The notes under the pieces are model-generated. The model had not been told where the DNA came from. It saw only the letters and a list, made by a program, of their open reading frames with translations, and searched no databases. A program made the position numbers and the translations under genes. A stretch of DNA of 64,000 nt from a bacterium. Lineage in GTDB: Bacteria; Ratteibacteria; UBA8468; B48-G9; DSTR01. The stretch spans positions 168-64,167 of the forward strand of contig JAKPFT010000087.1 in the NCBI GenBank assembly GCA_029551285.1, written 5' to 3'. Numbering within the stretch: position 1 is the stretch's first letter; every line of letters starts with the position of its first letter. Shown one piece after another: positions 12,023 to 36,825 of this stretch.

Positions 12023-12047
12023 GAGGGATTGATTCATCAGAAATTCC

Positions 12048-12665: not shown

Positions 12666-12855
12666 CGTAGATATCATCCTCTTCCAGCCACTCTTTGAAA
12701 CCTGTTTCAGCAACGGTCATCATGGCAGCAGTCTCAGCTCTCTTTTCTAAGGCCTCGGTGATAGCAAGAATCTCTCTGGGAGGCAGTTGAAGAATCATCT
12801 CAAAAACCATCTTCCTGATTTCTTCAGTACTCATGTTCAGGATAACTTTAGCCAT
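12652..12855 (-). CDS. Putative antitoxin (67 aa) cognate to the MazF/PemK-like toxin
   Basis: Small acidic protein (C-terminal EEDDIYDAQT) directly upstream of, and overlapping, the toxin gene. Family not recognised. Confidence 0.4.
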   Translation of the reverse strand: MAKVILNMSTEEIRKMVFEMILQLPPREILAITEALEKRAETAAMMTVAETGFKEWLEEDDIYDAQT

Positions 12856-12994
12856 TTACCACCTCCGTGATAGTCTTATGGCCGTTTCCAGCACGTTTTT
12901 GTGTACCGCTCCATTATACCACTGGCAATGCGATTATAAAACCTGATGAACGCCAGGTTAAAATCCGACATAAAAAAGGCAGTGAAAAATGTAT

Positions 12995-13127
12995 TTAACT
13001 TCAGAAAGATTTCTGCCCACACGCCCTTGTCGGAGACAGGACTACGAACGCTGCCGCTTTGCCTGCTTGTCTTGTAACTGCGCCATGGGATAGCGTGTGG
13101 TGAAATCTTAGCTCGTTGACACCCCGG
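12995..13127 (+). repeat. Copy 2 (short form) of the repeated element
   Basis: Same sequence as copy 1 from AAGATTTCTGCCC through TTGACACCCCGGA. Lies about 40 nt upstream of the 13169 CDS, in the same orientation. Confidence 0.8.
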
Positions 13128-13168
13128 ACCTTATATCAGAATTTCAGGATTCATGATAGAATACTGGT

Positions 13169-20819: not shown

Positions 20820-22895
20820 TCAGAATTCACACGTCTGCTTCCAGCAGTGGGCCAGCGTGGCCGGCGAGAAAAACTCATCCAGTTCGTTAAGGTCGTGACC
20901 CAGGTAGAGGACTTGCTGCGGCCGGCTGCCGTAACGGAACACGGTGATACCTTTACAGTTAGATTTCCAGGCCATCAAAAAAATCTTTCTGACATCGGCC
21001 ACGGTGGCTTCCGCCGGAAGATTCACCGTCTTGGAGACAGCGTTATCAGTGTATTTCTGGAAGGCAGCCTGCATCTTCAGGTGCTGGGTGGGAGAAAGGT
21101 CAAAGGCCGTAACAAAGAGCCGTCGCAGATGTTCAGGAATACCGGGCAAACCAGCCAGACTTCCCCGGGTCATTACCTGGCGCATCAGAGAGACGCTGAG
21201 TATGCCGGCTTTTTCCGCTGCCCGCTCAAAGACCGGATTCACTTCCAGAAATGTCCGGCCATTCAGGATGCGCCGGAGAAAAGTTAGTCCAAAAAAGGGT
21301 TCAATACCGCTGGAACAGTTAGCAATCACACTGATGGTGCCGGTAGGCGCGATGGTTGTTCTCGTCGCATGGCGCAGGGCCTGGACTTTTCTGTGGTAGC
21401 GGCTCAGGGGAAAATTCGGGAAAGAACCTCTTTCCTCACCCAGACGACAGGAGTAAGAAAAGGCTGTCTGGTTGATGAACTTCATCACCTCTTCCGCTAA
21501 CTCAAAACTCTTCTGGCTGCCATAGGCAAGACCAAGCTGGGCGAGAGTGTCGGCCCAGCCCATGATGCCCAGTCCAATCTTCCGGTTAGCCCGGGTAATC
21601 TGTTCCACCTGGGGCAGCGGAAAACGGTTGACTTCAATAACGTCGTCCAGGAAGCGCACTGCCAGTTCCACCAGTTGTTTCAATTTTTCCCAGTTAATTT
21701 TATCTTTCTCCACCACCCTGGTTAGATTGATGGAACCCAGATTACACGATTCAAAAGGTAAAAGTGGTTGTTCTCCACAGGGATTACAGGCTTCAATTTT
21801 GCCCAGGCCCGGGGTGGGATTGGCGCGATTGACGGCATCCAGGAAAATCAATCCCGGTTCTCCGCTCTCCCAGGCGCATTGGGCCATCATCTCAAAAACT
21901 TCTCTGGCCGGTAATCTTCTGGTGGTCTGGTTGGTACGCGGGTTAATCAGGGGGTAATCCTGCCGCTGCAGCACCCTTTTCAAAAAATCGTCGGTGACCG
22001 CCACGGAGAGATTGAAATTGGTAAATCGCTGTGTCCTTTTGGCCGCGATGAACTCTAAGATGTCCGGGTGGTCTACCCTCAAAATCCCCATGTTGGCTCC
22101 GCGGCGACGGCCTCCCTGTTTCACCACCGAAGTAGCCGCATCAAAAATTTCCATGAAAGACAGGGGGCCGGAAGCCTGCCCCCGCGTAGAAGCTACCAGG
22201 TCTCCGCGAGGTCTCAACCGGGAAAAGGAAAAGCCTGTTCCCCCTCCGCTCTGGTGAATCAACGCCATGTTCTTCAGGGCTTCAAAAATTCCCTCAATGG
22301 AGTCCTCAACCGGTAGCACAAAACAGGCGGAAAGCTGTCCCAGACTGGTTCCAGCATTCATCAGGGTTGGAGAATTGGGCAGAAACTCCAGGTTGGTCAT
22401 CAGGGAAAAGAATTTCTCCTCGTATTCAGAAACGCTGCCGCCAAAATTGCTTTCCCCTGAAGCCACATGATGAGCCACCCGACGGAAAAGTTCTTCTGGT
22501 TTTTCCACCACCTGGCCATTGAGTCGCAGCAGGTACCGCTCTTTAAGTACTGCTGCGGCCGTTACCGAAAGTTTGAGGCGTCCCTCCACTCCCAGAACAG
22601 TTTTGCTCTCTCTGAGAAGGCGGCGCTGATCGCGGTAACGAATGTAGGCTGAGGCCACCGGCGCAAGATTGTTCTCCATCAGCACCTGTTCCACTGTATC
22701 CTGAATTTCCTCTACGTGGGGATAGCCACCGGGTGTCTTCTTTAGCTTCTCCAGGACACATTGAGTAAGATAGGCTGCTCTTCCCGGAGCCGTTAAGTGA
22801 CAGGCAGCGAGGGCCTTGCTGATGGCAGTTTCAATTCTAACTGGAGAAAATTTCTCTAAGGATCCGTCCCGTTTCCGGACGCGAGTAAGCTTCAT
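20820..22895 (-). CDS. nrdJ: Class II adenosylcobalamin-dependent ribonucleotide reductase with N-terminal ATP-cone
   Basis: 691 aa. ATP-cone at the N-terminus (VRKRDGSLEKFSPVRIETAISKA). Catalytic core has CNPCGEQ and NLGSINL-type blocks. Start overlaps the upstream PDZ gene by 4 nt (ATGA). Confidence 0.85.
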   Translation of the reverse strand: MKLTRVRKRDGSLEKFSPVRIETAISKALAACHLTAPGRAAYLTQCVLEKLKKTPGGYPHVEEIQDTVEQVLMENNLAPVASAYIRYRDQRRLLRESKTVLGVEGRLKLSVTAAAVLKERYLLRLNGQVVEKPEELFRRVAHHVASGESNFGGSVSEYEEKFFSLMTNLEFLPNSPTLMNAGTSLGQLSACFVLPVEDSIEGIFEALKNMALIHQSGGGTGFSFSRLRPRGDLVASTRGQASGPLSFMEIFDAATSVVKQGGRRRGANMGILRVDHPDILEFIAAKRTQRFTNFNLSVAVTDDFLKRVLQRQDYPLINPRTNQTTRRLPAREVFEMMAQCAWESGEPGLIFLDAVNRANPTPGLGKIEACNPCGEQPLLPFESCNLGSINLTRVVEKDKINWEKLKQLVELAVRFLDDVIEVNRFPLPQVEQITRANRKIGLGIMGWADTLAQLGLAYGSQKSFELAEEVMKFINQTAFSYSCRLGEERGSFPNFPLSRYHRKVQALRHATRTTIAPTGTISVIANCSSGIEPFFGLTFLRRILNGRTFLEVNPVFERAAEKAGILSVSLMRQVMTRGSLAGLPGIPEHLRRLFVTAFDLSPTQHLKMQAAFQKYTDNAVSKTVNLPAEATVADVRKIFLMAWKSNCKGITVFRYGSRPQQVLYLGHDLNELDEFFSPATLAHCWKQTCEF

Positions 22896-23710
22896 CGCAG
22901 GTGGTAACTTAAAAGAAGAGGTGTGTTGTTACGGATTACTTCTACCGTGACAGTTTTTGTGGCTGAATTCAGAACCTGCTGATAGACCGCAAAAGCTCTG
23001 GCCAGACTGTCAATCAGCACACCGTTGACCCGGCGGATGATATCGCCGCTGCGCAACCCGTACTGGTAGGGCAGGCTATTTTCCGGCACCTGGCTGACCC
23101 GGAAGCCCTCTACCCTGCCCTCTTCGGTGATAAACGGGGACACCTTGAAGTTTTCCATAAGGTTGGGCGTGTCTCTCAGTTGGTTCAGCACTTCAGAGAC
23201 AGATACAGCCAAGGGTTCCTGAGCCACCGGCGGAGCCGTTGTTGCCTCCCGGCCTGACACAGGCAAAACAACTGTCTTAGTGGCCGGTTCTTTCCCCTTT
23301 TCTATGGTAACTGCCGCCGGCTGTGTTCCTGAAGAAGCCAGCGTTGTTTCTGGCAGGGACAGGCTAACTTCTTTCCCCTCGTATTCAAAAACCACCCTTT
23401 TTTCTTCAATGCGGGCGATGACGGCGCCAGCGCAGACAATTTCTCCTTGCCGGAAAAGGCTCTCTTCGTTCTGGTTTTTTAACCGCAGGACAGCCATGGA
23501 ACCAACCTGAGGAGCGTAGATGATGCCTTTTAACTCAACCAGAGTGTCAAGAGCCGGTGCTGGCTGAGGTTTAAGAATACTGTACCTGACAGGCGTTTTC
23601 GGTGGCGCCGGCTGGGTAAAAACATTTTTCTTGAGGATTAAATTTGTGTCTGTCCGGGAAGCAGCCGCCGCCAGAATAAGGCAAAGAAAGGTTAAGAACA
23701 CTTTTCTCAT
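22892..23710 (-). CDS. Secreted PDZ-domain protein (GspC-like architecture)
   Basis: 272 aa. N-terminal signal peptide, Pro/Thr-rich linker and a C-terminal PDZ-like segment (GFRVSQV...GLRSGDIIRRVNGVLI). Confidence 0.5.
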   Translation of the reverse strand: MRKVFLTFLCLILAAAASRTDTNLILKKNVFTQPAPPKTPVRYSILKPQPAPALDTLVELKGIIYAPQVGSMAVLRLKNQNEESLFRQGEIVCAGAVIARIEEKRVVFEYEGKEVSLSLPETTLASSGTQPAAVTIEKGKEPATKTVVLPVSGREATTAPPVAQEPLAVSVSEVLNQLRDTPNLMENFKVSPFITEEGRVEGFRVSQVPENSLPYQYGLRSGDIIRRVNGVLIDSLARAFAVYQQVLNSATKTVTVEVIRNNTPLLLSYHLR

Positions 23711-24900
23711 GAACCAGCTCCGAGAGCCAGTTGTAAGATACCAATCAGGTCAAAGATGTCAATACTGGCATCCTGGTTGAGGTCAGCCGCGGAGATAAGT
23801 TTCTCCGGATAAGGCACCTGGTAGGTGAAACTGCCCAGGGAAACTTCACTTTCAGTGGCCATTCTCAGACATAAAACGACATCAATGACATTGACCGTCC
23901 CGTCAAAATTCAGGTCGCCTTTTCTCACCACCGGGTCGGTGAGAGAAAAATTTACGCTGGAAAGATTCTGCCCCGGAAGAACCGTTACTGGATTGTCAGG
24001 ATAGAAATGAGAAGGCTCGGTCAAAACATCAAACAAGCCGTCACCGTTGGCGTCAAGAAAAGCCCAGAGGTAGTAGCATCCGGTGGAAACAGAAGAGATG
24101 GTAAAAGGACCAGGACCGGGAGAGACCGTTGAATAAGCCGGGACGCTCAGGTAAGAGTTCGCGGGAAGCAGATAGATGAAGATTAAACCAGCACAGTTTC
24201 CCTGATAGTCTATCCATCCCGAGATTGAACCCGGTTGTGTCTGGACGGTGTAGGTGGCGGAAGCGACACTGCTGGGATTAAGTCCGGACTTGTAAGCACG
24301 CGCCTTCAGGCTACAACTGCTGGTGAGATTCAATGGTGTGGTATAGAGCGGCGAAGTTAAGCCCGGGTCACTGCCGTCAGTGGTATATCTGATGGTGGCC
24401 CCTGGTGTCTCGCAGGAAAGAGAGACATTGACCGGGCTGGTGTAACTACCTGGCGCCGGCGAAAAAATAGGTTCAATGACTGTATTAACCTGGGTAATTC
24501 TCTGGCTGCCAGAGATCGGAATCTTCATTTCTCCGCTGGCGCTGATTGTTCCGGAAAACTTACAGGTACCTGCGGCGTTTGAAGGAATCTGAATCGTATA
24601 ACTGATGGTAAAGGAACTCACCCCGGAGGTACTGTACTGCAGCCAGGTGTAGGTCTGGCCGATTACTTTAATATAGGAAGGTACAGCCGAAGAAATGGTC
24701 CAGCCTTCAGGCACGGTTTCGTTGACAATCACGGCGGCCGGCGGGTTGGCCGGGTCAGTACTCACATTGATGGTGACCTGGACTGAACCACCGGGAACGA
24801 AGGTTGCGGGAAGGTTTCTGCTGGCGCTGGTACCTGCCTGAAGACCGTTCACCAGGGGGACCAGCAGAAGCAAAACACAGAAGATGCAGGTTTTACACAT
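23707..24900 (-). CDS. Secreted surface protein with CHB_HEX_C-like (Fn3-like) domain and C-terminal dockerin-like domain
   Basis: 397 aa. Signal peptide. FSPAPGSY...IRYTTDGSDP...KARAYKSGLNPS matches the chitobiase/hexosaminidase C-terminal-like domain. C-terminal duplicated Ca-binding dockerin segments (DLNFDGTVNVIDVVLCLRMA ... DLNQDASIDIFDLIGILQLA). Confidence 0.6.
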   Translation of the reverse strand: MCKTCIFCVLLLLVPLVNGLQAGTSASRNLPATFVPGGSVQVTINVSTDPANPPAAVIVNETVPEGWTISSAVPSYIKVIGQTYTWLQYSTSGVSSFTISYTIQIPSNAAGTCKFSGTISASGEMKIPISGSQRITQVNTVIEPIFSPAPGSYTSPVNVSLSCETPGATIRYTTDGSDPGLTSPLYTTPLNLTSSCSLKARAYKSGLNPSSVASATYTVQTQPGSISGWIDYQGNCAGLIFIYLLPANSYLSVPAYSTVSPGPGPFTISSVSTGCYYLWAFLDANGDGLFDVLTEPSHFYPDNPVTVLPGQNLSSVNFSLTDPVVRKGDLNFDGTVNVIDVVLCLRMATESEVSLGSFTYQVPYPEKLISAADLNQDASIDIFDLIGILQLALGAGS

Positions 24901-24916: not shown

Positions 24917-25549
24917 CTAATTTCTGGTAATCTTTCTTAAGAGGAGGATGACATCAAGGATATCCACGATGTCATTGCCATCAAGGTCAGCCCGGTTTAG
25001 AACCGGTGGTTCCATTCCCAGAGCCATTCGAAGACAGAGGGCAAGGTCAACAATATCAAGATTTTTGTCCCCGCTGATGTCGCCGGCGATGTAGATAATT
25101 TCTCCGGAAGTCAGGTTGACATTACGCGCCCACCCGTCGGCCCAGCTATTGGAATCCGGACCAAGGCACACGGCCTGGTATTCTATACCTTTTCGAGCAT
25201 CCCAGATTCTGAAGGTAATCGTATCACCCTGGCGGGCGCCCTCATCCACTGTCGGTGTGGTGATGTCATCACCGTAGACTTCCATAAAGCCGTAGAATCC
25301 GGCAGTGTGAATTACAAATCTGCCGCAGAGCACACCATTTGGGTCAAAAGCTGCCACCTCATCGCCAGGCTGTCCGGCCACTCCATTAATACTCACCTGC
25401 CCGTAGAAAGGGCATGAAGTTGGCGTGTTGATGGGAGTTGCAAAGTGGGCTGCCAGCAAAAGGTTGCTTTCAACGAAGAGAATAGCACCGACGACAAACC
25501 CGGTTTGTCTCTTTCTCCACCCCACTTTGCTCCTTTCTATTGTGACCAT
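24917..25549 (-). CDS. Small secreted protein: one FYG/Cys-Cys module plus dockerin-like tail
   Basis: 210 aa. Module FYGQVSINGVAGQPGDEVAAFDPNGVLCG...VYGDD.TTPT.DEGA..GDTITFRIW. C-terminal GDISGDKNLDIVDLALCLRMALG...ADLDGNDIVDILDVILLLRKI. Confidence 0.55.
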   Translation of the reverse strand: MVTIERSKVGWRKRQTGFVVGAILFVESNLLLAAHFATPINTPTSCPFYGQVSINGVAGQPGDEVAAFDPNGVLCGRFVIHTAGFYGFMEVYGDDITTPTVDEGARQGDTITFRIWDARKGIEYQAVCLGPDSNSWADGWARNVNLTSGEIIYIAGDISGDKNLDIVDLALCLRMALGMEPPVLNRADLDGNDIVDILDVILLLRKITRN

Positions 25550-28500
25550 CTCAGTTGCCCATTCTCAGAGAGTTTAATCCAGTAACCGTAACCAGGAGCA
25601 AAGTAATGCAGGGTGTTGAAGATCGGCGTATCTGGCTTGTAAGTATGATAACCGTCAGCGTCAAAACTGCGGATGTAGGTAAACTGGCCAGTTAGAGAAG
25701 TGAGAACAGCACCAACATCATCAACCTTGATGGCTTCCGTGACATCTTCCGGTAGAGTTACTAACGGTGCAGTAGCAGTATCATAGTAACACACTGGTGC
25801 CCAGCACCCGACCAGAACCCAGCGGCGATTCGCATCCACTGTCACAGAAAGAGTGTCAGTCGGTGAGATTTTGGCGCCAAGCAGTTCCAGGGTAACGTCT
25901 TCTTTCATCTTAATCCAGTATCCATAGCCAGGCGCTAAGTAATTTAGAGTGTTGTACTGTGGTGTGTCAGGATAATAGGTATGGTAGCCGTCTTTATCAA
26001 AACTGCGGATGACCTCAAACTTGCCAGCGATGGAAGAAAGAGCCTGGGCAATATCGTTTACCGGAACCGCCTCTGTTCCGGAAAGGGTAGCAACATCTGG
26101 CGGGTTTTGGCTGGAGTAGTAAAGACGGTTCACCGAGAAACTGAACAAATTCCAGCCGGCCTTAAGTGGAATCCTCTGGCCCACATCAAGGTTCACCTGC
26201 CGGGAGTCACCGTTTGCAGTCCAGGTAGCATTATCCGGTCCCAGGGGTTTGGCTGTGTAAGTCTTTTTCTCGCTTGCCTTCCAGATTCTGAAAGTCAGAC
26301 CTTCACCGGGACTGGCTCCTTCATCAACGCCGGAAGTATCCGGGTCGTCGCCGTAAACCAGTAAATCACCGTAAGAACCGGTGTTGGTAACCAGGAAACT
26401 TCCACAGCACACGCCGCTGCTATCATAAACAGCAATTTCATCGCCGGCTGCGGCATCCACAGTGAAAATTTTAACGGTGCCGTGGAACCTGACCGAATAA
26501 TTACTCTGGGTGAAGGGCAGGAAATGGTAGAAGTTGGCCGTGACTTCTTTAGGCCCATTCATGGTGACACTGACCGGGTTAGTGGTTCCGGAAAGACTGC
26601 CGCTCCACCCGGTGAAAGTATAGTCACTGCTGGCTGTGGCCTGGACCTGCACCTGGCTGCCGCTGTCGTACCAGTTGCTTTCTGGACTGACACTTCCGCC
26701 AAAAGAGTTATTCACGCCGGTGGTGAGGTAGTACTGGGTCGTCCAGGAAAGATTCAGGGTTTTAGCCTCATTCATCAGCAGAGAACCGGAAGCCGGTGAA
26801 GTCACGTATCTGATGCCGGTCCCTCCGGAAACAGGTGTGGTGACCGACCAGTTGGCCGTAGTTCCTGCATCGTACCAGCCTTCGCCCTGTGGATTGCCGT
26901 ATTCAGAGTTAATTTTCAGGTAATACTGCGTTTTCCAGAGCCAGGTAACGGCAGAAGGTTCGTTGATGGTAAAAGTCAGGGAACTGTCAGTTCCGCTGGC
27001 TGGCGCACTGCCAGTACCGGTCCAGCCGGTGCAGACATATTGCGTGGAACCCACAGTCACTGGTGTGGTCACTGCAGAACCGACCAGGGAACCAGCGTTG
27101 TACCAGTCTTCACCACTGGGGCTGCCATGCTGGGAAATCACCGTGAAGTAGTACTGGGTCGTCCAGGAAATTACCACGGTATCAGGCTCATTCATGACCT
27201 TGCTTCCAGAACTCGGAGCGGTGACAAAACGAATTCCTGTTCCGCCTGACCACGGACTGGTGACCGACCAGTTGGCTGTAGTTCCCGCATCGTACCAGCC
27301 TTCGCCCTGTGGATTACCATGTTCGGAAACGACGCTGAGGTAGTACTGGGTCGTCCAGGAAATAGTTACTGTGTTCGGCGCGTTCATGACTACAGAACCG
27401 GAGGAGGGTCTGGCTTCGTATCTTGTGCCGGTTGTGCCTGCTACTGGCGAGTCAACCGACCAGTTAGCCGTGCTTCCCGCGTTATACCAGCCAGCGCCAG
27501 CAGGGCTGCCATGAGCAGAAACAATCGTCAGGTAGTACTGGGTAACCCAGGTAATGTTGACAGTTTTTGGCCCATCCATAAAGACGCTTCCAGAAGCTGG
27601 AATAGCTACATACTGAACGCCAGTAGCACCAGCCACCGGTGAGTTTACTGACCAGTTGGCCGAAGTTCCTTCATTATACCAGCCAGCACCAACCGGCGTG
27701 CCGTAAGTTGAGTTAAGCGTCAGGTAGTACTGCGTAATCCAGGAAATGGTGATAGTTTTTGGCCCATCCATGAGTACGCTGCCAGAAGAAGGAACAGCCA
27801 CATAGCGCACACCCTCAGCCCCGGCTACCGGGGAAGTGACTGACCAGTTGGCCGTAGTTCCTGCATCGTACCAGCCAGCGCCAACCGGTGTGCCGTAAGC
27901 CGAAACTATGGTCAGAAGATACTGCGTTTTCCAGTTCCAGGTGATGGTGGAGTTGTTGGTAATGGTGAAGGTTACGGAAGTAGCCGTACCGCTGGTCGGC
28001 ACATCTCCGGTTCCAGTCCAGCCGGTGCAGACATACCGGATGCCGGTTTCCCCAGCCACCGGAGAGACCACCGAGGCTGTTACTTGCGTCAGGGTGTCGT
28101 AGATGTGAAGGCCAGCCGAAGGTTCTGGAGAACCATAAGCACTGCTGACCGTAAGACTGGCGCCGGTGGAAAGATTTACTTCCAGGGGGTCTGCGGATGG
28201 GTCCCACAACGGAGTGACCGAGGCAATGGCCAGATACTCTTTCTGTTCACTGGCGTCCCAGATACGGAAGGTGATGGTGTCACCATTTTCCGCTCCTTCA
28301 TCCTCAGCCGGGGTAGTGCTGTCATCCCCGTAAACTGGAAGATACCCGTAATAGCCAGCATGTTCCACGACAAAAGCGCCGCAGCAAACCCCCTGCGGGT
28401 CAAAAGCGCCGACTTCGTCTCCTGACTGAGCCGGCACTCCGTTGATGGTAATCACTCCATAAAATTCTCTCACTGAGGGTGTTTTCGCCACCGGTGTGTA

Positions 28501-29847
28501 ACGACGGCCAGTAAGAGAAAAGTTGGCCATCACAGTTTTGCCACTATTCATGGTCACGGTGGCCGGGTTATCTGTCCCGGTTAAGTCTCCGCTCCAGCCC
28601 GTGAAGGTGAAACCGCTGTTAGCCACCGCAGTCACCTGAACACTTTCGCCGCTGTCATACCAGTTACTGCTGGGTGTTACCGAACCGCCCGCGGCTGGAT
28701 TGGTCTGCGTCGTCAAAAGGTACTGGACCTTCCAGTTCCAGGTGATGGTGGAATTCTGGGTAATGGTGAAGGTTACGGAAGTAGCCGTACCGCTGGCCGG
28801 CACATCTCCGGTTCCAGTCCAGCCGGTGCAGACATATCTGGTGTTACCGGCAGTTACCGGCGAAAAAACAGAAGCGGTTACTGAAGTGCCGGTGGCGTAA
28901 GAGTGGCTGCCGACACCCGGGTCAGGTGAACCGTAAGCGCTGGCCACGGTCAGATTAACCTGACCAAGAAAGACCGCGGTAACTGTTCTGGGCGCATTAA
29001 CTGTGACTACGGTCGGATTGGTAGACCCAGAAAGGTCTCCACTCCAGTGGTCAAAAACATAGCTGGGGTTGGCTGTCGCCTGGACCTGCACCTGGCTGCC
29101 GCTGTCGTACCAGTTGCTGGCTGGCGTGACTGTTCCGGCCTGAACCGGGTCAGCCTGCGTGGTTAAGTAATACTGGACCTTCCAGTTCCAGGTGATGGTG
29201 GAGTTGTTGGTAATGGTGAAGGTTACGGAAGTAGCCGTACCGCTGGCCGGCACATCTCCGGTTCCAGTCCATCCGGTGCAGACATAGCGCACTCCAGAGC
29301 CAGCATCAACCGGCGAGGTGACTGAGGCAGTAACTTGAGTTCCGGTATTATAGTAATGAATACCCACGCCCGGGTTGGGCGAGCCGTAGGTGCTGGTGAC
29401 ACTTAAGGTTAACTGGCTGACGCTGGTGCTCAGATTAACATTCAGCTTGCCCTTGTCCACCCAGACAGGACTGTCCGGACCCAGCAGTACCGCATCAAAT
29501 ACCTGATTGGTGCTGGCCTGCCAGATTTTGAAGGTAATCGTATCACCTGGCTGAGCGCCTTCATCTATTGTTGGAGTGGTGGAATCATCGCCATAAACTG
29601 CCATGAAACCGTAGAAACCCTCGGTGTTCACCGTGAAAACACCGCAGCAAACTCCCTGCGGGTCAAAAGCCGCCACCTCATCGCCGGGTTGAGCCGGACT
29701 GCCATTTACCTGAACTGTGCCGTAAAAGTCGCAGGAAGTCGGCGACGTTCCCACGATGGAGAAGTGGCCGGAGAAACACAACTGACCAAAAAGAAGAGAA
29801 ACAGCCAGGACTGCAAACCCCAATCCAATCTGCTTTTGAGGTCTCAT
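25537..29847 (-). CDS. Large secreted repeat protein (1436 aa): FYG/Cys-Cys modules, divergent InlB B-repeat-like units, six tandem ~69-aa repeats, C-terminal tandem GWNL/APGYGYWIK modules
   Basis: Signal peptide. Three FYG...GVCCG...VYGDD...TFRIW modules. Recurrent (Y/V)VCTGWTGTGDVPASGTATSVTFTI units. Tandem TQYYLT.VSA.G.P.GAGWY.AG.TANWSV.SPVAG.. repeats. Thr/Ser-rich throughout. Confidence 0.65.
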   Translation of the reverse strand: MRPQKQIGLGFAVLAVSLLFGQLCFSGHFSIVGTSPTSCDFYGTVQVNGSPAQPGDEVAAFDPQGVCCGVFTVNTEGFYGFMAVYGDDSTTPTIDEGAQPGDTITFKIWQASTNQVFDAVLLGPDSPVWVDKGKLNVNLSTSVSQLTLSVTSTYGSPNPGVGIHYYNTGTQVTASVTSPVDAGSGVRYVCTGWTGTGDVPASGTATSVTFTITNNSTITWNWKVQYYLTTQADPVQAGTVTPASNWYDSGSQVQVQATANPSYVFDHWSGDLSGSTNPTVVTVNAPRTVTAVFLGQVNLTVASAYGSPDPGVGSHSYATGTSVTASVFSPVTAGNTRYVCTGWTGTGDVPASGTATSVTFTITQNSTITWNWKVQYLLTTQTNPAAGGSVTPSSNWYDSGESVQVTAVANSGFTFTGWSGDLTGTDNPATVTMNSGKTVMANFSLTGRRYTPVAKTPSVREFYGVITINGVPAQSGDEVGAFDPQGVCCGAFVVEHAGYYGYLPVYGDDSTTPAEDEGAENGDTITFRIWDASEQKEYLAIASVTPLWDPSADPLEVNLSTGASLTVSSAYGSPEPSAGLHIYDTLTQVTASVVSPVAGETGIRYVCTGWTGTGDVPTSGTATSVTFTITNNSTITWNWKTQYLLTIVSAYGTPVGAGWYDAGTTANWSVTSPVAGAEGVRYVAVPSSGSVLMDGPKTITISWITQYYLTLNSTYGTPVGAGWYNEGTSANWSVNSPVAGATGVQYVAIPASGSVFMDGPKTVNITWVTQYYLTIVSAHGSPAGAGWYNAGSTANWSVDSPVAGTTGTRYEARPSSGSVVMNAPNTVTISWTTQYYLSVVSEHGNPQGEGWYDAGTTANWSVTSPWSGGTGIRFVTAPSSGSKVMNEPDTVVISWTTQYYFTVISQHGSPSGEDWYNAGSLVGSAVTTPVTVGSTQYVCTGWTGTGSAPASGTDSSLTFTINEPSAVTWLWKTQYYLKINSEYGNPQGEGWYDAGTTANWSVTTPVSGGTGIRYVTSPASGSLLMNEAKTLNLSWTTQYYLTTGVNNSFGGSVSPESNWYDSGSQVQVQATASSDYTFTGWSGSLSGTTNPVSVTMNGPKEVTANFYHFLPFTQSNYSVRFHGTVKIFTVDAAAGDEIAVYDSSGVCCGSFLVTNTGSYGDLLVYGDDPDTSGVDEGASPGEGLTFRIWKASEKKTYTAKPLGPDNATWTANGDSRQVNLDVGQRIPLKAGWNLFSFSVNRLYYSSQNPPDVATLSGTEAVPVNDIAQALSSIAGKFEVIRSFDKDGYHTYYPDTPQYNTLNYLAPGYGYWIKMKEDVTLELLGAKISPTDTLSVTVDANRRWVLVGCWAPVCYYDTATAPLVTLPEDVTEAIKVDDVGAVLTSLTGQFTYIRSFDADGYHTYKPDTPIFNTLHYFAPGYGYWIKLSENGQLRWSQ
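26700..27930 (-). repeat. Intragenic tandem DNA repeats (period ~207 bp, about 6 units) inside the 1436-aa gene, plus three near-identical ~110-bp segments further 5' (about 27.93, 28.72 and 29.18 kb)
   Basis: Recurring strings such as GTAGTACTGGGTCGTCCAGGAAA, and CCGACCAGTTGGCCGTAGTTCCTGCATCGTACCAGCC identical at two places. CCAGTTCCAGGTGATGGTGGAGTTGTTGGTAATGGTGAAGGTTACGGAAGTAGCCGTACCGCTGG occurs three times. Coordinates approximate. Confidence 0.6.
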
Positions 29848-29862
29848 GGCACCTGCCCTCCT

Positions 29863-30261
29863 TTACTCAACGACGAAAAGATTGACCTGGTGACGGTCAT
29901 GGTTCTTCGTCCAGACAGCATTTTCCGGCTTATCAACCACCGCAGTTTTGCCGTTAATCTTGAAGGTAATAACATCTCCAGGTTCAGCCCCCTCATCTCT
30001 GGTGGTGGTGGGGTCATCGCCGTAGACGCAAAGATACCCGAAGACGCCTAATTTTTTTACGATGAACTTCCCGCAGAGGTTACCCTGAGGGTCGTAGGCG
30101 GTGATGACATCGCCTTCTTTGACCGGTGCATTGTTCACCATCGCCTGGCCGTAAAAATCAACACCTTCAGGGGTGGGAGTAACTCTTTCCTCAGCCAGCA
30201 AAATAGCGGTTAACATCAGCGACAGAAGGAGCCCGAAGATCATATGCCCTCTCATCTTCAC
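29863..30261 (-). CDS. Small secreted protein consisting of a single FYG/Cys module
   Basis: 132 aa. Signal peptide then FYGQAMVNNAPVKEGDVITAYDPQGNLCG...VYGDDPTTTRDEGAEPGDVITFKI. Confidence 0.5.
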   Translation of the reverse strand: MKMRGHMIFGLLLSLMLTAILLAEERVTPTPEGVDFYGQAMVNNAPVKEGDVITAYDPQGNLCGKFIVKKLGVFGYLCVYGDDPTTTRDEGAEPGDVITFKINGKTAVVDKPENAVWTKNHDRHQVNLFVVE

Positions 30262-30301: not shown

Positions 30302-32185
30302 TCACTGTGTTCCCCATCGGAAGGAACGTGAAGTTGTCATTTTTATCCAGTAACCGTATCCCGGCCCGAAGTAGTGCAGGGTATTGAAAACAGGATTTAC
30401 TGCCGGGTCAAAGGTCCTGGCGCCATAAGCGTCAAAGCCGCGTACCACGCTGTAGTATCCGGCAATACTGTTTAAGGCATTGGCCACGCTGGGAAGGGAA
30501 ACAAAACTGTTCACTCCTTCCGGAAAGGAAACTGCCGGTTGACTGCCATTATCGTAATATACATTTGTGTCCCAGTATCCCACTAAATTCCAGCCAGTAT
30601 TCAGGGTGAGGGTGGCTGAAGGATTAACCGGCTCGCCTTCTAATTCAAGGGTTGCGGCTTCGCTCATCTTAATCCAGTAGCCATAGCCGGGTGCCAGATA
30701 ATGCAGGGTATTAAACACAGGATTGACCGTGGGGTCAAAGGTCATGGCGCCAGAGGCGTCAAAGCCGCGGACCACCGTATATTTACCGGCAATGGAAGTT
30801 AGAACATCTCCAATGCTGTTGACTTTCTGGTAATTGACCCCGGCCAACATCGCCACGTTCGGCTGAGCGGCACTGTCGTAAAAACAGGTGTTGAGTGGAA
30901 AACTGATTAGGTTCCAGCCGGCGACCAGAGGCATTCTCCAGCGATTAATTCCGTTAAGGTTAACATTGCGATTGACACCATCCTGCCAGAGGATGCTGTC
31001 GGGGCCAAGCGCGGTGGCCAGGTAGATTTTTTTCTCCGCGGCTGACCAGATTTTGAAGGTGATGGTATCGCCGTTTTGCGCGCCTTCATCCCTGGTGGGA
31101 GTCGTCGGGTCATCGCCGTAAACAGGCATGAAACCGTAAAAACCAGCTGTCGTAACCTTCCATGTTCCACAGCAGACACCCTGCGGGTCAAAGGCGGCAA
31201 TCATATCACCTGGCTGGACATTCACGCTGTTAATCGTCGCGTTTCCATAGAAATTGATCCAGGTGTTGGTCGTGGTTAGTATCCCGAACGGAAAAAGATA
31301 CTCTGAGGTAGCAATGCTGCTGGGGTTCATGCCTTCTTTGAAGGCTCTGGCCTTGATGGTAGTGGCTGTAGCGACACTCAGCGGCGTGGTGTAAACAGTT
31401 GAAGTCTCCGTAGGGTCAGAGCCGTCGGTGGTATAGCGAATCGTTGCGCCGCTGGTAACGCAGGTAATAGCAACACTGAGACTGCTGCTGTAAGCGCCGG
31501 GGTTTGGACTGAAGGTTGGGGTAGCCACTGTTTCCAAGATTGTATAAAGCCCGCAGGCTATCTGACTGGGATTCATCCCTTCCTTGAAGGCTCTGGCTTT
31601 GATGGTCGTGGTGGTATTAACAGCCACCGGTGTCGTGTAAATGGTTGAAGTCTCCGTGGGGTCAGAGCCGTCGGTGGTATAACGGATGGAGGCCCCGCTG
31701 GTGCTGCAGGTGATGGCTACTGATTGTGCGCTAGCGTAACTGCCGGGAGGTGGCGAAAACTGCGGCGTGGAAACAGTGGAATTGTCAAGAATTACGGTGT
31801 CGCCGACGATGTTGTAAGTGCCGTAATCGTCAACGACAGAGCCGGTGAAAACTTTGTCGCCGCTATCACCAGCAGGAACGCTGACAGTGTAAGTAATCTG
31901 ATAGGGCACATCTATCGGGTTCGTACTGTAATTGAGCCACTTGTAGCGGTTGTCTTCCGAAATGTAAGTGCTATAAGGCGGGGTGGAGGAAACAATGGTC
32001 CAGCCTTGCGGCAGATACTCCCGAATAACGATGCTCACCACATGGTCAGGAATGACGGTGAGGGTAACCTGAAAAGTAGTGCCGGCCACATAACCGTCAG
32101 GCAGATTTCTGGTGACGCTGGTAGCGGAGAAGACCTGGCTGGAAAGAAAAAGGGAAAGAAACAATAAAGAAAACTTTCTCGTCAT
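30302..32185 (-). CDS. Secreted surface protein (about 627 aa from the internal Met): two CHB_HEX_C-like domains, one FYG/Cys-Cys module, C-terminal tandem GWNL/APGYGYWIK modules
   Basis: Start chosen at MTRKFSLLFLSLFL (signal peptide). Duplicated FSPPPGSY...IRYTTDGSDPTETST(I/V)YTTP...KARAFKEGMNPS. Same C-terminal module pair as the 1436-aa protein. Confidence 0.55.
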   Translation of the reverse strand: MTRKFSLLFLSLFLSSQVFSATSVTRNLPDGYVAGTTFQVTLTVIPDHVVSIVIREYLPQGWTIVSSTPPYSTYISEDNRYKWLNYSTNPIDVPYQITYTVSVPAGDSGDKVFTGSVVDDYGTYNIVGDTVILDNSTVSTPQFSPPPGSYASAQSVAITCSTSGASIRYTTDGSDPTETSTIYTTPVAVNTTTTIKARAFKEGMNPSQIACGLYTILETVATPTFSPNPGAYSSSLSVAITCVTSGATIRYTTDGSDPTETSTVYTTPLSVATATTIKARAFKEGMNPSSIATSEYLFPFGILTTTNTWINFYGNATINSVNVQPGDMIAAFDPQGVCCGTWKVTTAGFYGFMPVYGDDPTTPTRDEGAQNGDTITFKIWSAAEKKIYLATALGPDSILWQDGVNRNVNLNGINRWRMPLVAGWNLISFPLNTCFYDSAAQPNVAMLAGVNYQKVNSIGDVLTSIAGKYTVVRGFDASGAMTFDPTVNPVFNTLHYLAPGYGYWIKMSEAATLELEGEPVNPSATLTLNTGWNLVGYWDTNVYYDNGSQPAVSFPEGVNSFVSLPSVANALNSIAGYYSVVRGFDAYGARTFDPAVNPVFNTLHYFGPGYGYWIKMTTSRSFRWGTQ

Positions 32186-32330
32186 GGAAGGCTCCTTCGG
32201 TTGGCAGGGTTTCTGGCTCATTTTTCTATTGTTTTTAGCCGCACTTCACCTATGCTGCAATTTTACCCCGGCACACCCTTTTCTGTCAAGTCGCTTTTTT
32301 TAGACGCTAAAATACCCGCATAAAGGCATG

Positions 32331-32590
32331 GTTAACGAGGGAAGATTTCAAGACACGGTAGCCGATGGCGCAGTTACAAGACAAGCACCCAAAGCGGCAG
32401 CGTTCGGTAAGCGTCCCCCAAAAGGCAATCCGGGACGGCCACCTTACCCGGCGGTGTCTCCAGTTCGCCGCATGACGAATGAGTTCGCGCCAGCAACCGA
32501 TTGGGTGTGTAATCTTGTCTGCAACAAGGCGTGTGGGCAGAAATCTTCCCGAAGTTAGACACCTTTTTTTCACAACCTTCGTTATCTCGT
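32331..32590 (-). repeat. Copy 3 (long form, minus orientation) of the repeated element, in the 5' leader of the 30302..32185 gene
   Basis: Reverse complement begins ...GGTGTCTAACTTCGGGAAGATTTCTGCCCACACGCC and ends ...GCTGCCGCTTTGGGTGCTTGTCTTGTAACTGCGCC...GAAATCTTCCCTCGTTAACC. Carries about 105 bp of extra internal sequence homologous to copy 4. Confidence 0.75.
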
Positions 32591-34174
32591 GCTTTTAGTT
32601 AGACGCCGATACTTTGACCTCAGTATAGTTAGCAGCCAGAAGCCAACCATCAGATACGGAAGAAGTCCTTTTAGAAAGAGAGCAGCCAGCCAGACCACCG
32701 GATAAAGCATCAGGCGAACGATGGCTCTAAGCCAGCCTTTTCTGGAAATGAAGGAAGCCGCGGCTGGCCCTTTCCGGTAATACCAGGTGACAAAAGCCCG
32801 GCCAACTTCAGTTGGACAGAGTACTCTATCCCGGAAAAGACGCAACACTTCAATCTCCTTGCTCAACGGCGAGCCGAAAGCAGCCGTGGCGATAAAACAG
32901 CCACCACTGTCAGCGCTGCGGACCACCGGGCCGGAAGGGTCAACAATCACTCCATTAGCCACTCCATCAGCGTCGCCTGAGCCACCGTCAGTAAGGGTCA
33001 CAATGGCTACATTGCCGGTCATTTCAACCTGGGAATACTCCTGCCATCGCTGAGTGGCTGCCGCGCTCTCATCATACTTGTACCATCTGCTGCCTCCAGG
33101 CAGAACTTCCGGGAAGATAAAGCGCAACCTCACTGTTTGCCCTTCTGGCACTTCCACGCGGCTGAGAAAGACACCATAAGGAGCCCGGAGAAAATCAGGC
33201 AGATTCTCAGCCTCCATGCCAGAAAAGTAGGTTACGGGATATCCATCAGGAGATTCCAGCAGAACAGCCTTATCGTGGAAGGAGATAATTTTCGTATCCT
33301 GAGGTAAAGGCAGGTCCGGATTGTATCCGTAATGGGAAAGGTCTTCCCCGGCCGGCTCCTGTTGGTCAGGGATACCATTGCCGTCGGTATCTTCTGTTTG
33401 ACTGCGGGGCACCGTGGTTATGGCTGCTTCTGCGGGTTGGGAACTTCGGCCAGCGCTGTCGGTGGCCTGAACCCTGATGATATAAGAAGTTTCTGGTTGC
33501 AGGATGCAGGAGCCAATCCAGGCAGCATTAACCTGGCCTGAGGTAACGCTTGTGGCAAAGACAATTGTCTCGTTGTTAGCGCAACGTATTTCCCAGGAGC
33601 TGGAAGCCGCAGGGGTGTTGAGCGGACTCAAATACTGCCCTGTCACCTTAATCGGAATGTCTACGGCAAGAGCGCTGGCGTTCAGGGCCTGGCCGTCCTG
33701 ATTGAAGAATTGCAAATTGTAAAAGAAGGGCTGGCCGTCAGAAGTAAACTGCTCACCGCCGATGGCAGTCTCATACTGATAATTGGAGACGTCAATCCAG
33801 CGACAAGTTCCCTGAAATGTTCTGGCGCCGCTGGCCTGCTCTGGAATCTGAAGTTGATAGCTAATGTCCATAGAAGTGTCACTGATGACATCGTGGAATT
33901 CCCACTTGATTTCGCCGGTCTCAGGAAGGAACCGACTCTGGACAGGGTCTGCCGTGACTAAGTTCCAGCCCACCGGGACATATTCGGTTACAATTACGGC
34001 ATTGGGCAGGTTGGCTTCATCCACTTCAAGGTTCAGCGTCACCGTGAGACTGCTGCCAGGCTGGTAGGCCACCGGCAAGGTTCTGGTAGCCGTCACTGTC
34101 TGAGCAAATTGAGCGAAGGAAAAGGATGGAAGGAAAAGAAGAAGCACAAGCAATAAACCAGCAACCTTTCTCAT
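32582..34174 (-). CDS. Secreted protein with a C-terminal Cys-containing hydrophobic/basic tail (GGCFIATAAFGS...TM...KYRRLTKSTR); putative surface-anchored protein
   Basis: Start taken at the internal MRKVAGLLLVLLLF, whose ATG overlaps the upstream stop as ATGA. The C-terminal 110 aa contain a conserved Cys motif, a TM helix and a basic tail, the layout of a protein-sorting or anchor signal. Confidence 0.5.
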   Translation of the reverse strand: MRKVAGLLLVLLLFLPSFSFAQFAQTVTATRTLPVAYQPGSSLTVTLNLEVDEANLPNAVIVTEYVPVGWNLVTADPVQSRFLPETGEIKWEFHDVISDTSMDISYQLQIPEQASGARTFQGTCRWIDVSNYQYETAIGGEQFTSDGQPFFYNLQFFNQDGQALNASALAVDIPIKVTGQYLSPLNTPAASSSWEIRCANNETIVFATSVTSGQVNAAWIGSCILQPETSYIIRVQATDSAGRSSQPAEAAITTVPRSQTEDTDGNGIPDQQEPAGEDLSHYGYNPDLPLPQDTKIISFHDKAVLLESPDGYPVTYFSGMEAENLPDFLRAPYGVFLSRVEVPEGQTVRLRFIFPEVLPGGSRWYKYDESAAATQRWQEYSQVEMTGNVAIVTLTDGGSGDADGVANGVIVDPSGPVVRSADSGGCFIATAAFGSPLSKEIEVLRLFRDRVLCPTEVGRAFVTWYYRKGPAAASFISRKGWLRAIVRLMLYPVVWLAALFLKGLLPYLMVGFWLLTILRSKYRRLTKSTR

Positions 34175-36825
34175 GGTCCCCCCTGCTTTTGGAAGACTGG
34201 CAAGCGGCATCTTTGATTCACTGACTGAACCTGACCGTAAGTTGTCTGTTCCGGTGCGCTGATGGTGAAAAAACCGCTACTTCCGCTCACTCCAGGCAAG
34301 TCTTTACTGGCTACCCGAATTTGATAATCGGCTCCTGCCGGCAGTGTCGCTGGAATACTCCACGGACAGAAACCTTCGCCCTGCTGGCCAGGGCTGACCG
34401 TGGTGATGGTACCAAGAAGAAGACCTGATTTCCACAACTGCACCGTAACCTGTGAACCCGGGAAACCCTGGTATTGCCAGCGGATAGTTTGACTGCTGCC
34501 GGCCGGCCAGATTTCGCCGGCCATGGGCGCCACTACGGCGATACTTCCATGAGAAATAGAAAAGGACCCGCTTTCGGCAAACAGAGAGGGATAACGATAA
34601 CTGGTCACCCTGATTAGATAGTTATCCCCCGGAGTCAGGTTCAGCGGTATTGCCCAGGTCTGAGTTCCTTCTCCGGCTTGGCCGACGCAGGAACCGGCGG
34701 AGATCAGTCCCTTCCTTTTTCCGCCTTGATAAAGTTCCATCCTTACCTGATTGCCCGGGTCTCCAGTGTACTGCCAGCGGATGGAAGCTGTCGTTCCGGT
34801 ATACCAGACCGCGCCTGGTTCCGGCGCCACCACCGCGATGCTTTTCTTATGGATGCTGAAAAATTGGGCGCTGGCATCACTGACCCAGGGGTACTCCTTG
34901 CTGGTGATGCGCATCCGGTAGCGGCTGCCTTCCGCAATCCCGGCTGGCTTCCAGGGATAACTGCCCTGGCCTTCCCGGCCAATGCTGACGCCATCAGAGA
35001 CTATTGCGGCTACTTCCTCTCCGTCCAGCAGGGCAATTTCCACATTACGGCCGGCCTGGCCGGTGTACTGCCAGCGGATGAGTTGAAGGCTGTCCCTGTC
35101 CCAGGACTCACCGCCAGCCGGCGAAAGAACTTTTAACCAGGCCAGTGGCTGAGTGATGGAGAGGGAAAAATCCCGGCGGTCACTCCCCGGTGGAGTGGAA
35201 CTATCTGTGACCTGAATCTGGAACGAGTAAACGCCGGCACTGGCCGGTGTTCCTTCCACACAGGCCTGGCTGTTGGCCGTGGTCAGGGTCAAGCCTGGCG
35301 GCAACTGGCCGCTAACCAGTGACCAGAAATAGGGTTTCTCACCGCCGTCAGCCAGGACCCTGTTCCGGTAAAATCTGCCAGTATAGCCGCTGGCCAGAGA
35401 GGGAGTAATAATTTTTACCTGGCCACCGACGACATCAAAGGCGTTGCTGCTGCCGCTTTTTCCCTGTGCCGCCACAGTGATGACATTGCCTGCTTTAACG
35501 GCATTGATGGTCACATTCCCTTCCCAGTAACCCTCGGTAAAATTGCCGGTGCTGGCAGGCGAAATAGTCCCGGTCAGGTCAGAAAGGGAAACCACACCAT
35601 TGAACTGGCGATAAAGTTGGCCACTCCTGTCCCGGGCCGTAATTTTCAGCAGGAAGGCAACGCCTGTCTTCTGGGGAGAAGAAATGGGGGAGACCTCAAA
35701 TCTTTCCAGGCTGGGCGGGGCACCAAGCGCATAAAAAGTTCCATCCGAACAACCTGAGAAAACCGTGCCGTCAGCGCCGATGGCTGGCGAGGCAGCACCT
35801 GCGGGACTGCCGAGAGCAAACTTCCACTTCAGCCGTCCGTTGCGGTCTATGCAATAAAGATGGCCGTCGTTACACCCGAAATAAAAGTTGTTCTGGCTGT
35901 CCACAGCTGGTGAAGATTCTACAGTGTTCTCTGTCCGGTAGAGCCACTTAAGTTTGCCGAAGCCATCCAGCGCTGCGAGGAAATTTCCGGCGCCAACATA
36001 GATGCGGCCGTTGAAATCTATGGCTGGAGAAGAGACCAGCGCCGCCCCGAAACTGTACTTCCACCTTTCTGTTCCCCCGCCGCTGACACCATAAAAGTAA
36101 CCGGCCTGGTTGCCCAGATAGATTGTCCCGTCAGGGCCAACTGAAGGAGCGTGGGTTATGGCTGAGCCGGTCACCACCCGGAAAAGGAGTTTTCCTTCCG
36201 GGTTGAATCCATAAAGACTGCCATCAGAAGAACCGACATAGATTTCCCCGGAAAAACCAATCACCGGAGAGGAGAAAACAGGGCCTTCTGTCTGGAATTT
36301 CCAGCGGACGGTCCCGTCAGATTTCAAGGCGTAGAGGCACCGATCACCGGAACCAACATAGATAGTCCCCTCACTGTCTATCACCGGAGAAGAGAAATTA
36401 CCCCCGGTGGTGGTCAGTTTCCACTTCAAACTTCCGGTGGCAGAAACAGCGCAAAGCGCGCCTTCTCCGGAACTGACATAGGTGCTCAGATAGACCGTAC
36501 CGTCACTGCCCAGGGCCGGCGAGGAACGGATGGTGCCGCCTGGACGAAAACTCCAGCGTAAGGTGCCATCAGGCGCTAAGGCATAAAGAGTGCCTTTTTC
36601 TGAGGTAAAATAAACGCTGCCGTCGGAACCTATAGCCGGGGAAGAGACAATCGCGGCGTCGGCTTTGAACTTCCATTTCAGGGAAGGTTGTTCTGGTCCA
36701 GGCACTGTGGCCCGGCCGGTGTGTCTGGCATCGTGGCGAAACATTGGCCAGACTTCGGATGCTTCGGGATAGCCGCAGGAAAAAATCAAAGAAAGACAGG
36801 CAACCAGCCAGATTTTTCCGCTCAT
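34171..36825 (-). CDS. Lipoprotein with PQQ-like beta-propeller repeats followed by three Kre9/KNH-like Ig-type repeats
   Basis: Start placed at MSGKIWLVACLSLIFSCGYP (lipobox LIFSC), preceded by a GGAGGAG RBS; the longer track ORF is an N-terminal extension. Repeated GTLYA...DGT(L/V)RW(K/S)F blocks. Three G(Q/F)(A/P)G..V.(I/M/V).L..(G/S)..(repeat) segments. Confidence 0.6.
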   Translation of the reverse strand: MSGKIWLVACLSLIFSCGYPEASEVWPMFRHDARHTGRATVPGPEQPSLKWKFKADAAIVSSPAIGSDGSVYFTSEKGTLYALAPDGTLRWSFRPGGTIRSSPALGSDGTVYLSTYVSSGEGALCAVSATGSLKWKLTTTGGNFSSPVIDSEGTIYVGSGDRCLYALKSDGTVRWKFQTEGPVFSSPVIGFSGEIYVGSSDGSLYGFNPEGKLLFRVVTGSAITHAPSVGPDGTIYLGNQAGYFYGVSGGGTERWKYSFGAALVSSPAIDFNGRIYVGAGNFLAALDGFGKLKWLYRTENTVESSPAVDSQNNFYFGCNDGHLYCIDRNGRLKWKFALGSPAGAASPAIGADGTVFSGCSDGTFYALGAPPSLERFEVSPISSPQKTGVAFLLKITARDRSGQLYRQFNGVVSLSDLTGTISPASTGNFTEGYWEGNVTINAVKAGNVITVAAQGKSGSSNAFDVVGGQVKIITPSLASGYTGRFYRNRVLADGGEKPYFWSLVSGQLPPGLTLTTANSQACVEGTPASAGVYSFQIQVTDSSTPPGSDRRDFSLSITQPLAWLKVLSPAGGESWDRDSLQLIRWQYTGQAGRNVEIALLDGEEVAAIVSDGVSIGREGQGSYPWKPAGIAEGSRYRMRITSKEYPWVSDASAQFFSIHKKSIAVVAPEPGAVWYTGTTASIRWQYTGDPGNQVRMELYQGGKRKGLISAGSCVGQAGEGTQTWAIPLNLTPGDNYLIRVTSYRYPSLFAESGSFSISHGSIAVVAPMAGEIWPAGSSQTIRWQYQGFPGSQVTVQLWKSGLLLGTITTVSPGQQGEGFCPWSIPATLPAGADYQIRVASKDLPGVSGSSGFFTISAPEQTTYGQVQSVNQRCRLPVFQKQGGP

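Follow-up and report, generated by a model that had tools for sequence, protein, structure and literature searches.

Beta-sandwich domains that carry several conserved Asp or Glu residues in the loops at one pole are familiar from C2 domains and from Ca2+-dependent carbohydrate-binding modules (CBMs) and lectins. Cohesin-dockerin scaffolding is known from non-cellulosomal systems too (Peer et al. 2009, as cited in PMC10066038), dockerin-rich proteins have been described in the Omnitrophota (bioRxiv 10.1101/2023.11.21.568195), and large surface open reading frames (ORFs) have been noted as a feature of that group (PMC10066038). The present account deals with a stretch of 64,000 nucleotides, called the window throughout, from a bacterium placed among the Ratteibacteria (GenBank assembly GCA_029551285.1, contig JAKPFT010000087.1, positions 168 to 64,167 of the forward strand), where four successive genes of one operon encode secreted proteins that share a repeated domain, referred to below as the module. 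As an extracellular beta-sandwich the module is of a familiar kind, though the family is new, and it is distinguished by its partner domain, here named GW, and by the grammar of the gene order in which the two are found. Two papers on the giant and dockerin-bearing proteins of Omnitrophota do not mention it (PMC10066038; bioRxiv 10.1101/2023.11.21.568195).

The four ORFs were confirmed on the minus strand, as are all module and GW positions given below, and encode proteins of 210 aa (24917..25549), 1436 aa (25537..29847), 132 aa (29863..30261) and 639 aa (30302..32221). A hidden Markov model (HMM) made from the module copies and run with --max, that is with the filters off, against all stop-to-stop segments in the six frames of the whole window recovered exactly six copies, with domain E-values between 1e-44 and 1e-52; the next best match had E = 0.2. 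An earlier note, made from the letters of the sequence, had reported seven copies in five secreted proteins, and while the module itself is real, the count comes to six in four. The 397-aa product of a neighbouring gene has no module and scores only E = 1.6. Three copies reside in the 1436-aa protein: copy A (aa 39-140, 29428..29733, E = 1e-51) follows right after the signal peptide, copy B (aa 461-560, 28168..28467, E = 3e-48) is internal and copy C (aa 1119-1221, 26185..26493, E = 6e-48) is fused to a pair of GW domains. Copy C is the most divergent in the window, with 47% identity to copy A, and corresponds to the degenerate copy that the note had placed near the C-terminus of this protein; it does exist, as the third of the three and not as an extra one. 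The 210-aa, 132-aa and 639-aa proteins have one copy each (aa 46-147, 25109..25414, E = 4e-52; aa 34-128, 29878..30162, E = 1.4e-44, a short "ING" subtype; and aa 322-423, 30953..31258, E = 1e-52, respectively). The copies share 47-64% protein and 52-63% DNA identity with each other, which marks them as old paralogues and not an assembly artefact. A complete unit consists of a Pro/Thr-rich leader, (P)T-rich in sequence, and the segment from FYG through VNL, and measures about 100-110 aa, longer than the 80 or so first estimated. All four proteins begin with a basic and then hydrophobic N-terminus which, read by eye, is compatible with a signal peptide.

The module had been left without a Pfam assignment, and the searches bear this out. 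In the four window proteins it has no match at E ≤ 1 in Pfam-A (models to 2025) or NCBIfam 20, and no Pfam or NCBIfam family covers it in homologues where it is repeated up to 6 or 14 times, nor in stand-alone, cohesin-fused and type IX secretion system (T9SS)-type members; 67 further multi-module proteins likewise have no Pfam family at cut-off over the module. The only recurrent Pfam signal is PapC_C, over 14 residues (positions 8-21), and its scores of 15-21 bits fall short of the cut-off of 27. Nothing was returned when the module profile was searched against all PDB sequences, and none of these databases held a confident match to a described domain. Structure prediction with AlphaFold2 (AF2), using residues 28-145 of the 1436-aa protein and an 86-sequence alignment, gave a confident model (predicted local distance difference test, pLDDT, 94.2; predicted template modelling score, pTM, 0.87) that is all-beta, with seven strands in its secondary structure. 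Foldseek found nothing in the PDB at E ≤ 1e-3, and the best match was the C-terminal domain of the PapC usher (E = 2e-3, template modelling (TM) score 0.39-0.52), followed at TM 0.4-0.5 by an intradiol dioxygenase sandwich and by domains of the UafA and Bap adhesins. The BFVD matches, to sandwiches of the tail-fibre and CarboxypepD_reg-like kind, were equally distant, so that what Foldseek recovers are generic sandwiches. A profile comparison by hhalign with the CarboxypepD_reg-like domain that precedes the module in proteins of the Fibrobacterota-Chlorobiota-Bacteroidota (FCB) group was not significant (19.8% probability over 36 columns). The module is thus predicted to be an autonomously folding seven-stranded beta-sandwich of secreted or cell-surface proteins. 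The autonomy, which had been surmised from the small size of two of the window proteins, is argued for by the high pLDDT together with dozens of stand-alone secreted homologues of 110-180 aa.

The extent of the family emerges from searches of large collections. A word-indexed search gave 86 relatives of 66-181 aa, all annotated as "hypothetical", most of which, among those that were read, consist of a signal peptide and the module. One of the 86 is the window's own 132-aa protein; the entry (P0001) is identical to aa 7-132, as the JGI-called ATG lies at codon 7 and gives 126 aa. A full HMMER scan of 1.84 billion representative sequences (clustered at 50% identity) placed 5,142 representatives in the family at E ≤ 1e-3 and 2,411 at 1e-10, and among the best 150 of the 5,142 a single protein has up to 15 modules and the lengths range from 260 to 5,376 aa. 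For genomic context, one genome per species (GTDB) was taken and contigs were scanned with a profile of the six window copies, from which 119 module loci were confirmed and 78 were kept. Every one of them belongs to a metagenome-assembled genome (MAG), and together they span more than 10 phyla. The lineages include Zixibacteria, Ignavibacteria, Latescibacterota, WOR-3, Eisenbacteria, Poribacteria and Omnitrophota, as well as Deltaproteobacteria (Syntrophus, Syntrophorhabdaceae), Zetaproteobacteria, Chloroflexota and Woesearchaeota. Four loci (L008, L025, L028 and L032) lie on contigs binned as Woesearchaeota or "uncultured archaeon", and in L028 the gene of a GW-ending protein is followed by two module protein genes; the archaeal binning reflects either cross-domain transfer or mis-binning.

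Conservation was counted over 204 non-identical module instances from the 78 genomes. The conserved core comprises G17, D24, G31 (99%), G39, Y47 (94%), T53, G59, A60 and G63, and the most conserved part of the family is the acidic YGDD and DEGA blocks (D49 90%, D50 87%, D57 81%, E58 79%, D/E64 90%). The earlier note had singled out these blocks as a possible metal site, and their conservation keeps a putative Ca2+ site plausible. Consecutive strands alternate in direction in the model, and when the loops are placed by this alternation, read from the AF2 secondary-structure string, the acidic loops and a conserved Trp fall at the pole that also holds the module N-terminus. The D24, YGDD, DEGA and GD loops and the Trp would then gather at one pole, opposite the C-terminal exit and the junction with GW, and the most economical reading is that this pole is a candidate site for Ca2+ or a ligand.

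The second domain of the system, GW, is a unit of about 100 aa with the motifs GWNL(I/V)S and GYGYWIK. Two copies end the 1436-aa protein (aa 1224-1324 and 1334-1436, 25540..26178, E = 1.6e-50 and 4.5e-53) and two end the 639-aa protein (aa 427-529 and 534-638, 30308..30943, E = 1.3e-52 and 3.4e-52), and in both the last module abuts the GW pair without a linker. GW has no match in Pfam, NCBIfam or PDB sequences. The module-GW-GW cassette of the 639-aa protein was modelled by AF2 as a rigid body (pLDDT 96.6, pTM 0.85), in which a single residue separates the last strand of the module from the first strand of GW, and Foldseek found no counterpart of this cassette in the PDB (TM ≤ 0.21). The two domains travel together: in the related loci the module is present in 69 of the 75 ORFs that have GW. 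The cassette comes in two forms. In Omnitrophota-like and in delta- and zetaproteobacterial MAGs it is module-GW-GW at the extreme C-terminus, and in the FCB group the order CarboxypepD_reg-module-GW-module-T9SS sorting domain ends adhesin-like proteins of 1,000-2,900 aa.

A gene grammar can be read from the same loci. A module gene stands directly after the GW gene in 58 of 73 cases, with the module inside the first 60 residues in 51 of the 58, and an N-terminal module is seen in 64 of 75 complete module proteins that lack GW. Thirteen of 15 stand-alone module genes also come directly after a GW gene. There are split variants as well, in which a GW-ending protein has no module in cis and the next gene supplies one, as is the case for four of six such ORFs in the genome loci and for the clusters of both cohesin-GW-GW proteins, P0254 and P0351; a further protein, P0243, has the order cohesin-module-GW-GW. 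The window operon, which reads 639, 132, 1436, 210 and 397 aa and then a GspC-like gene, with gaps of 40, 15, -13, 16 and -4 nt, fits the pattern of a GW gene followed by a gene for a signal peptide and module. The product of the following gene is either the module by itself, as in the 132-aa type, or a module heading another surface protein, as in the 1436-aa and 210-aa types. A division of the modules into specialised plug and cassette subtypes was considered and dropped, because sorting by context separates them too weakly (0.36 identity within the "after GW" class against about 0.30 between classes).

In the FCB group, a large two-module T9SS adhesin and a small T9SS protein with an N-terminal module form a pair whose neighbourhood is conserved in L014, L033, L035 and 25 more loci. 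The order is VanZ, the pair and then a PP2C phosphatase, the latter being a neighbour in 28 loci of Zixibacteria, Ignavibacteria and relatives, with a PMT_2/TPR glycosyltransferase in four loci and a TrkA channel also seen. This suggests that the FCB pair is an old, vertically inherited core component of the envelope. As a functional clue the neighbourhood (VanZ, PP2C, TrkA channel, PMT_2/TPR) was set aside, as it resembles housekeeping synteny.

In the 67 multi-module proteins, the commonest Pfam partners are the T9SS tail (27), FlgD_ig (18), HYDIN-like Ig (15), cohesin (4) and dockerin (4), with fn3, Big_9 and cadherin-like domains also frequent, and LysM occurs in at least one member of the family (P0092). 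None of the 25 commonest partners is a catalytic family, and a Pfam scan of the window's module proteins found no catalytic domain. This set of partners is the profile of adhesins and scaffolds and not that of a CBM appended to enzymes. The earlier suggestion of a "binding or assembly unit" fits both this domain company and the gene grammar, and in a more specific form it is the reading that we prefer, if with somewhat less than even confidence: the module would be a binding and assembly unit of surface complexes, probably Ca2+-dependent, that ties the products of an operon together. The acidic loops (AxD, YGDD, DEGA, GD) would form the Ca2+ site at which the module grips its partner, this binding would join the co-encoded proteins into one surface complex, and the module would work beside the dockerins (in the window) and cohesins (in relatives) of the same proteins and clusters.

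Several points weigh against this proposal. The clustering of the acidic loops and the Ca2+ site itself are derived from strand order alone. The loci were gathered by a search for the module, so that the adjacency counts are enriched by design, and genes that arose by tandem duplication and share a function would likewise end up side by side. Giant proteins with as many as 15 copies in tandem bring to mind a stalk or a multivalent lectin rather than one-to-one docking, and a conserved tip of aromatic and acidic residues is just as characteristic of sugar binding that depends on Ca2+. The parallel with the cellulosome is also incomplete, as the window has two dockerin proteins and Pfam recognises a cohesin in none of its large ORFs that were scanned.

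The most probable alternative is that the module is a Ca2+-dependent lectin or CBM whose tip binds a glycan, be it on prey or host cells, on a substrate or on the envelope of the cell itself. The module would then recur in neighbouring genes through a common target and not through mutual binding. A beta-sandwich with conserved Asp/Glu loops as well as Tyr and Trp would suit such a role, as would the multivalency of 2 to 15 copies per protein, partners such as CHB_HEX_C, BACON and LysM, and the small secreted forms, which resemble stand-alone lectins; the GYGYW and GWN motifs make GW similarly rich in aromatic residues. What speaks against sugar binding is that typical CBMs accompany catalytic families, which are missing from the top 25 partners, that no CBM or lectin was matched by sequence or fold in Pfam, the PDB or BFVD, and that a lectin role does not of itself explain why the GW gene should so strictly precede a gene with an N-terminal module. 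On balance a lectin is somewhat unlikely.

In a stronger version of the docking proposal, module and GW would be a new plug-and-socket pair and a functional analogue of dockerin and cohesin. A surface protein with GW-GW at its end, or with module-GW-module followed by a T9SS tail, would recruit the product of the next gene by way of the N-terminal module of that product. In the window, the role of scaffold would fall to the 1436-aa protein with its three modules, that of adaptor to the 210-aa protein and that of a cap or competitor to the 132-aa protein. This stronger version we regard as unlikely and put forward as speculation. If true, it would build ordered surface complexes in at least 10 phyla, most of them uncultured, that range from the Omnitrophota and Zixibacteria to the DPANN archaea.

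An improbable third possibility is that the module has no ligand of its own and serves as a passive structural spacer, an Ig-like extender rigidified by Ca2+ in the stalks of long adhesins. Acidic loops are common in Ca2+-stiffened extender domains, such as those of RTX adhesins, the sandwich fold is a generic one, and in proteins 3,000-5,000 aa long the module arrays do alternate with HYDIN-like Ig domains. A mere extender does not account for the dozens of secreted proteins made up of the module and nothing else, nor for its fixed position, which is either at the head of the mature protein, right behind the signal peptide, or immediately in front of GW, and the loops are conserved across phyla well above the level of ordinary spacer Ig domains.

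Still less probable is a pilin-like subunit, whereby the small module proteins would polymerise into a fibre with the cassette protein as its anchor and larger module proteins at its tip. It draws on the small module-only genes that adjoin those of large module proteins, and on the fact that a PapC usher domain and Gram-positive pilins are, weakly, the best Foldseek matches. Those matches do not get beyond E = 2e-3 at TM 0.4-0.5 for the module and TM 0.21 for the cassette, the model shows a complete sandwich that lacks no strand for donor-strand exchange, and a conserved Lys/Asn isopeptide pair is absent. Among the Pfam-scanned neighbour genes, both in the window and in the related loci, there is no usher, chaperone or sortase.

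The earlier note had also drawn attention to a conserved vicinal Cys-Cys pair and a possible disulfide, and this part did not stand up. The pair occurs in four of the six window copies, among them copies A and B and that of the 639-aa protein, with LC in its place in the 210-aa and 132-aa proteins. Over the 204 instances it is found in six, limited to the three closest relatives (L001, L002 and L004); Cys is absent altogether from 54 instances, and 103 contain exactly one. The first position is mostly Leu (41%), Val (13%), His (11%) or Lys (10%), and the second is Cys in 72% and Val, Ala or Ile in 26%, which fits a buried small residue. With these statistics a disulfide or thiolate site cannot be a feature of the family, and the pair appears to be a substitution peculiar to this lineage, at a strand position that is buried, rather than a functional site. 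That a strained disulfide or thiolate metal site should be central to function is hence hardly credible, even with the pair kept in most window copies and the closest relatives, and the host is moreover an anaerobe with genes for carbon monoxide dehydrogenase/acetyl-CoA synthase (CODH/ACS). A separate observation is an additional Cys just before strand 1 in the two modules that come directly after a signal peptide, in PTSCDFYG of the 1436-aa protein (29698-29733, minus strand) and PTSCPFYG of the 210-aa protein (25379-25414, minus strand), which is absent from the internal copies; in this lineage alone, it might form a pair with the Cys of strand 3.

Three other assignments were tried and rejected. 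An isopeptide domain of the CnaB kind would call for a Lys that strand 1 does not conserve, and the Asn of VNL is not kept beyond the window's relatives (VEL, VDL, IDL). A thioester domain (TED) has no conserved Gln as partner for the Cys, and a role of the N-terminal module as a secretion signal does not agree with the internal and tandem copies that are common.

The remaining parts of the module proteins and their neighbours can be described briefly. Besides its modules and GW pair, the 1436-aa protein contains InlB B-repeats (Flg_new_2, E = 7e-36 in Pfam) between copies A and B and further repeats between copies B and C, and the 132-aa protein has nothing other than its signal peptide and module. 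The 210-aa protein ends in a dockerin-like segment (aa 155-207, 24929..25087, minus strand), where the match to Dockerin_1 is weak (E = 0.011, 16.4 bits, under the cut-off of 22.9) and two D-x-D/N-G-D...D repeats are visible, DISGDKNLDIVD and DLDGNDIVDILD. The 639-aa protein, which has an alternative start at M13 (position 32185) that gives 627 aa and is the one called by JGI too, carries between its signal peptide and cassette a shared N-terminal domain and two CHB_HEX_C domains. The 397-aa secreted protein of the same operon (23707..24900, minus strand) combines the shared N-terminal domain, CHB_HEX_C and a dockerin, here with 23.9 bits and above the Dockerin_1 cut-off. The shared domain is a third recurrent unit of about 110 aa (TRNLP...VPxGW...), located just after the signal peptide of the 397-, 639- and 542-aa proteins (24499-24831, 31787-32122 and 33743-34090, minus strand) with 33-39% identity, and its only assignment is a weak Pfam match to DUF11 (E = 0.007). 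The 542-aa protein (32582-34210, minus strand) has a choice-of-anchor U domain and a CFI-box-CTERM sorting signal (NCBIfam E = 1e-22 and 1e-24), a different and little-studied C-terminal anchoring signal in the same cluster of surface proteins.

The last gene of the operon (22892..23710, minus strand) is GspC-like, with T2SSC and PDZ domains in Pfam, and is a lone gene in that no other scanned ORF of the window is a component of type II secretion. Loci that resemble type II secretion systems have been reported upstream of Omnitrophota giant genes (bioRxiv 10.1101/2023.11.21.568195). Elsewhere in the window a giant ORF of 4,515 aa (42278-55825, minus strand) contains RCC1-type propeller repeats, three BACON_2 domains, InlB B-repeats and a HYDIN-like Ig domain, with a TPR protein encoded on either side (40115-42277 and 56041-58965). 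A Wood-Ljungdahl cluster at 1865-16167 encodes CdhD, ACS beta, a Prismane-type CODH, the corrinoid activator RACo, a pterin-binding methyltransferase and a CooC-like ATPase, and marks the host as an anaerobic organism of the acetogen type. The class II ribonucleotide reductase encoded in the window has its nearest matches in Omnitrophica (72%) and Ratteibacteria (60%), and together with the CODH/ACS genes this points to a host that is probably an anaerobe resembling the Omnitrophota.

The broader meaning of these findings is that two abundant domain families, GW and the module (the latter with over 5,000 clusters at 50% identity), have been without a name. Both are found in the largest surface proteins of phyla known from metagenomes only, such as Omnitrophota, Zixibacteria, Ignavibacteria, Latescibacterota and Woesearchaeota, where cell-cell attachment is thought to be central to life and yet is nearly unannotated. 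A cassette with a strict gene order provides two new annotation models, along with a small and confidently modelled pair of domains for binding tests. Should it be a true docking system, it would be a candidate for an orthogonal tool beside cohesin-dockerin, and should the module be lectin-like or a spacer, the gain would be better annotation.

In predicted fold and in size, the module is closest to CarboxypepD_reg (PF13620) and to the C-terminal domain of the PapC usher (PF13953, PDB 3l48), which are seven-strand sandwiches as the module is in its model, and with transthyretin/prealbumin-like domains it has in common an opening hairpin of the type G-x-V...G-x-P-x-x-G-x-x-V. A CarboxypepD_reg domain stands directly upstream of the module in the FCB proteins. 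However, nothing in transthyretin-like domains corresponds to the conserved Trp or to the long acidic loop that joins strands 4 and 5 (YGDD...DEGA..GD), and unlike PapC_C and CarboxypepD_reg the module is part of neither an usher nor a peptidase and has no significant profile similarity to them. With the C2 domains and the Ca2+-dependent CBMs and lectins it would share the acidic-loop pole, to judge from strand order and conservation, but it showed no match to them in sequence or fold.

At the level of whole proteins and gene clusters, the nearest analogy is with cohesin and dockerin (PF00963, PF00404). The 1436-aa protein is non-catalytic and has several sandwich modules and a non-catalytic C-terminal unit, the 210-aa protein with its module and dockerin is small and adaptor-like, a dockerin-bearing neighbour of 397 aa is at hand as in cellulosome systems, and in relatives of the window proteins true cohesins are fused to the GW cassette. 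In contrast to these systems, neither module nor GW matches a cohesin profile, no cohesin structure is among the listed Foldseek PDB matches of the module or the cassette, and most loci of the family, those of the FCB type, have no dockerin. By this analogy, the module functionally most resembles the non-cellulosomal cohesin-dockerin type of scaffolding, as a family that belongs to neither cohesins nor dockerins.

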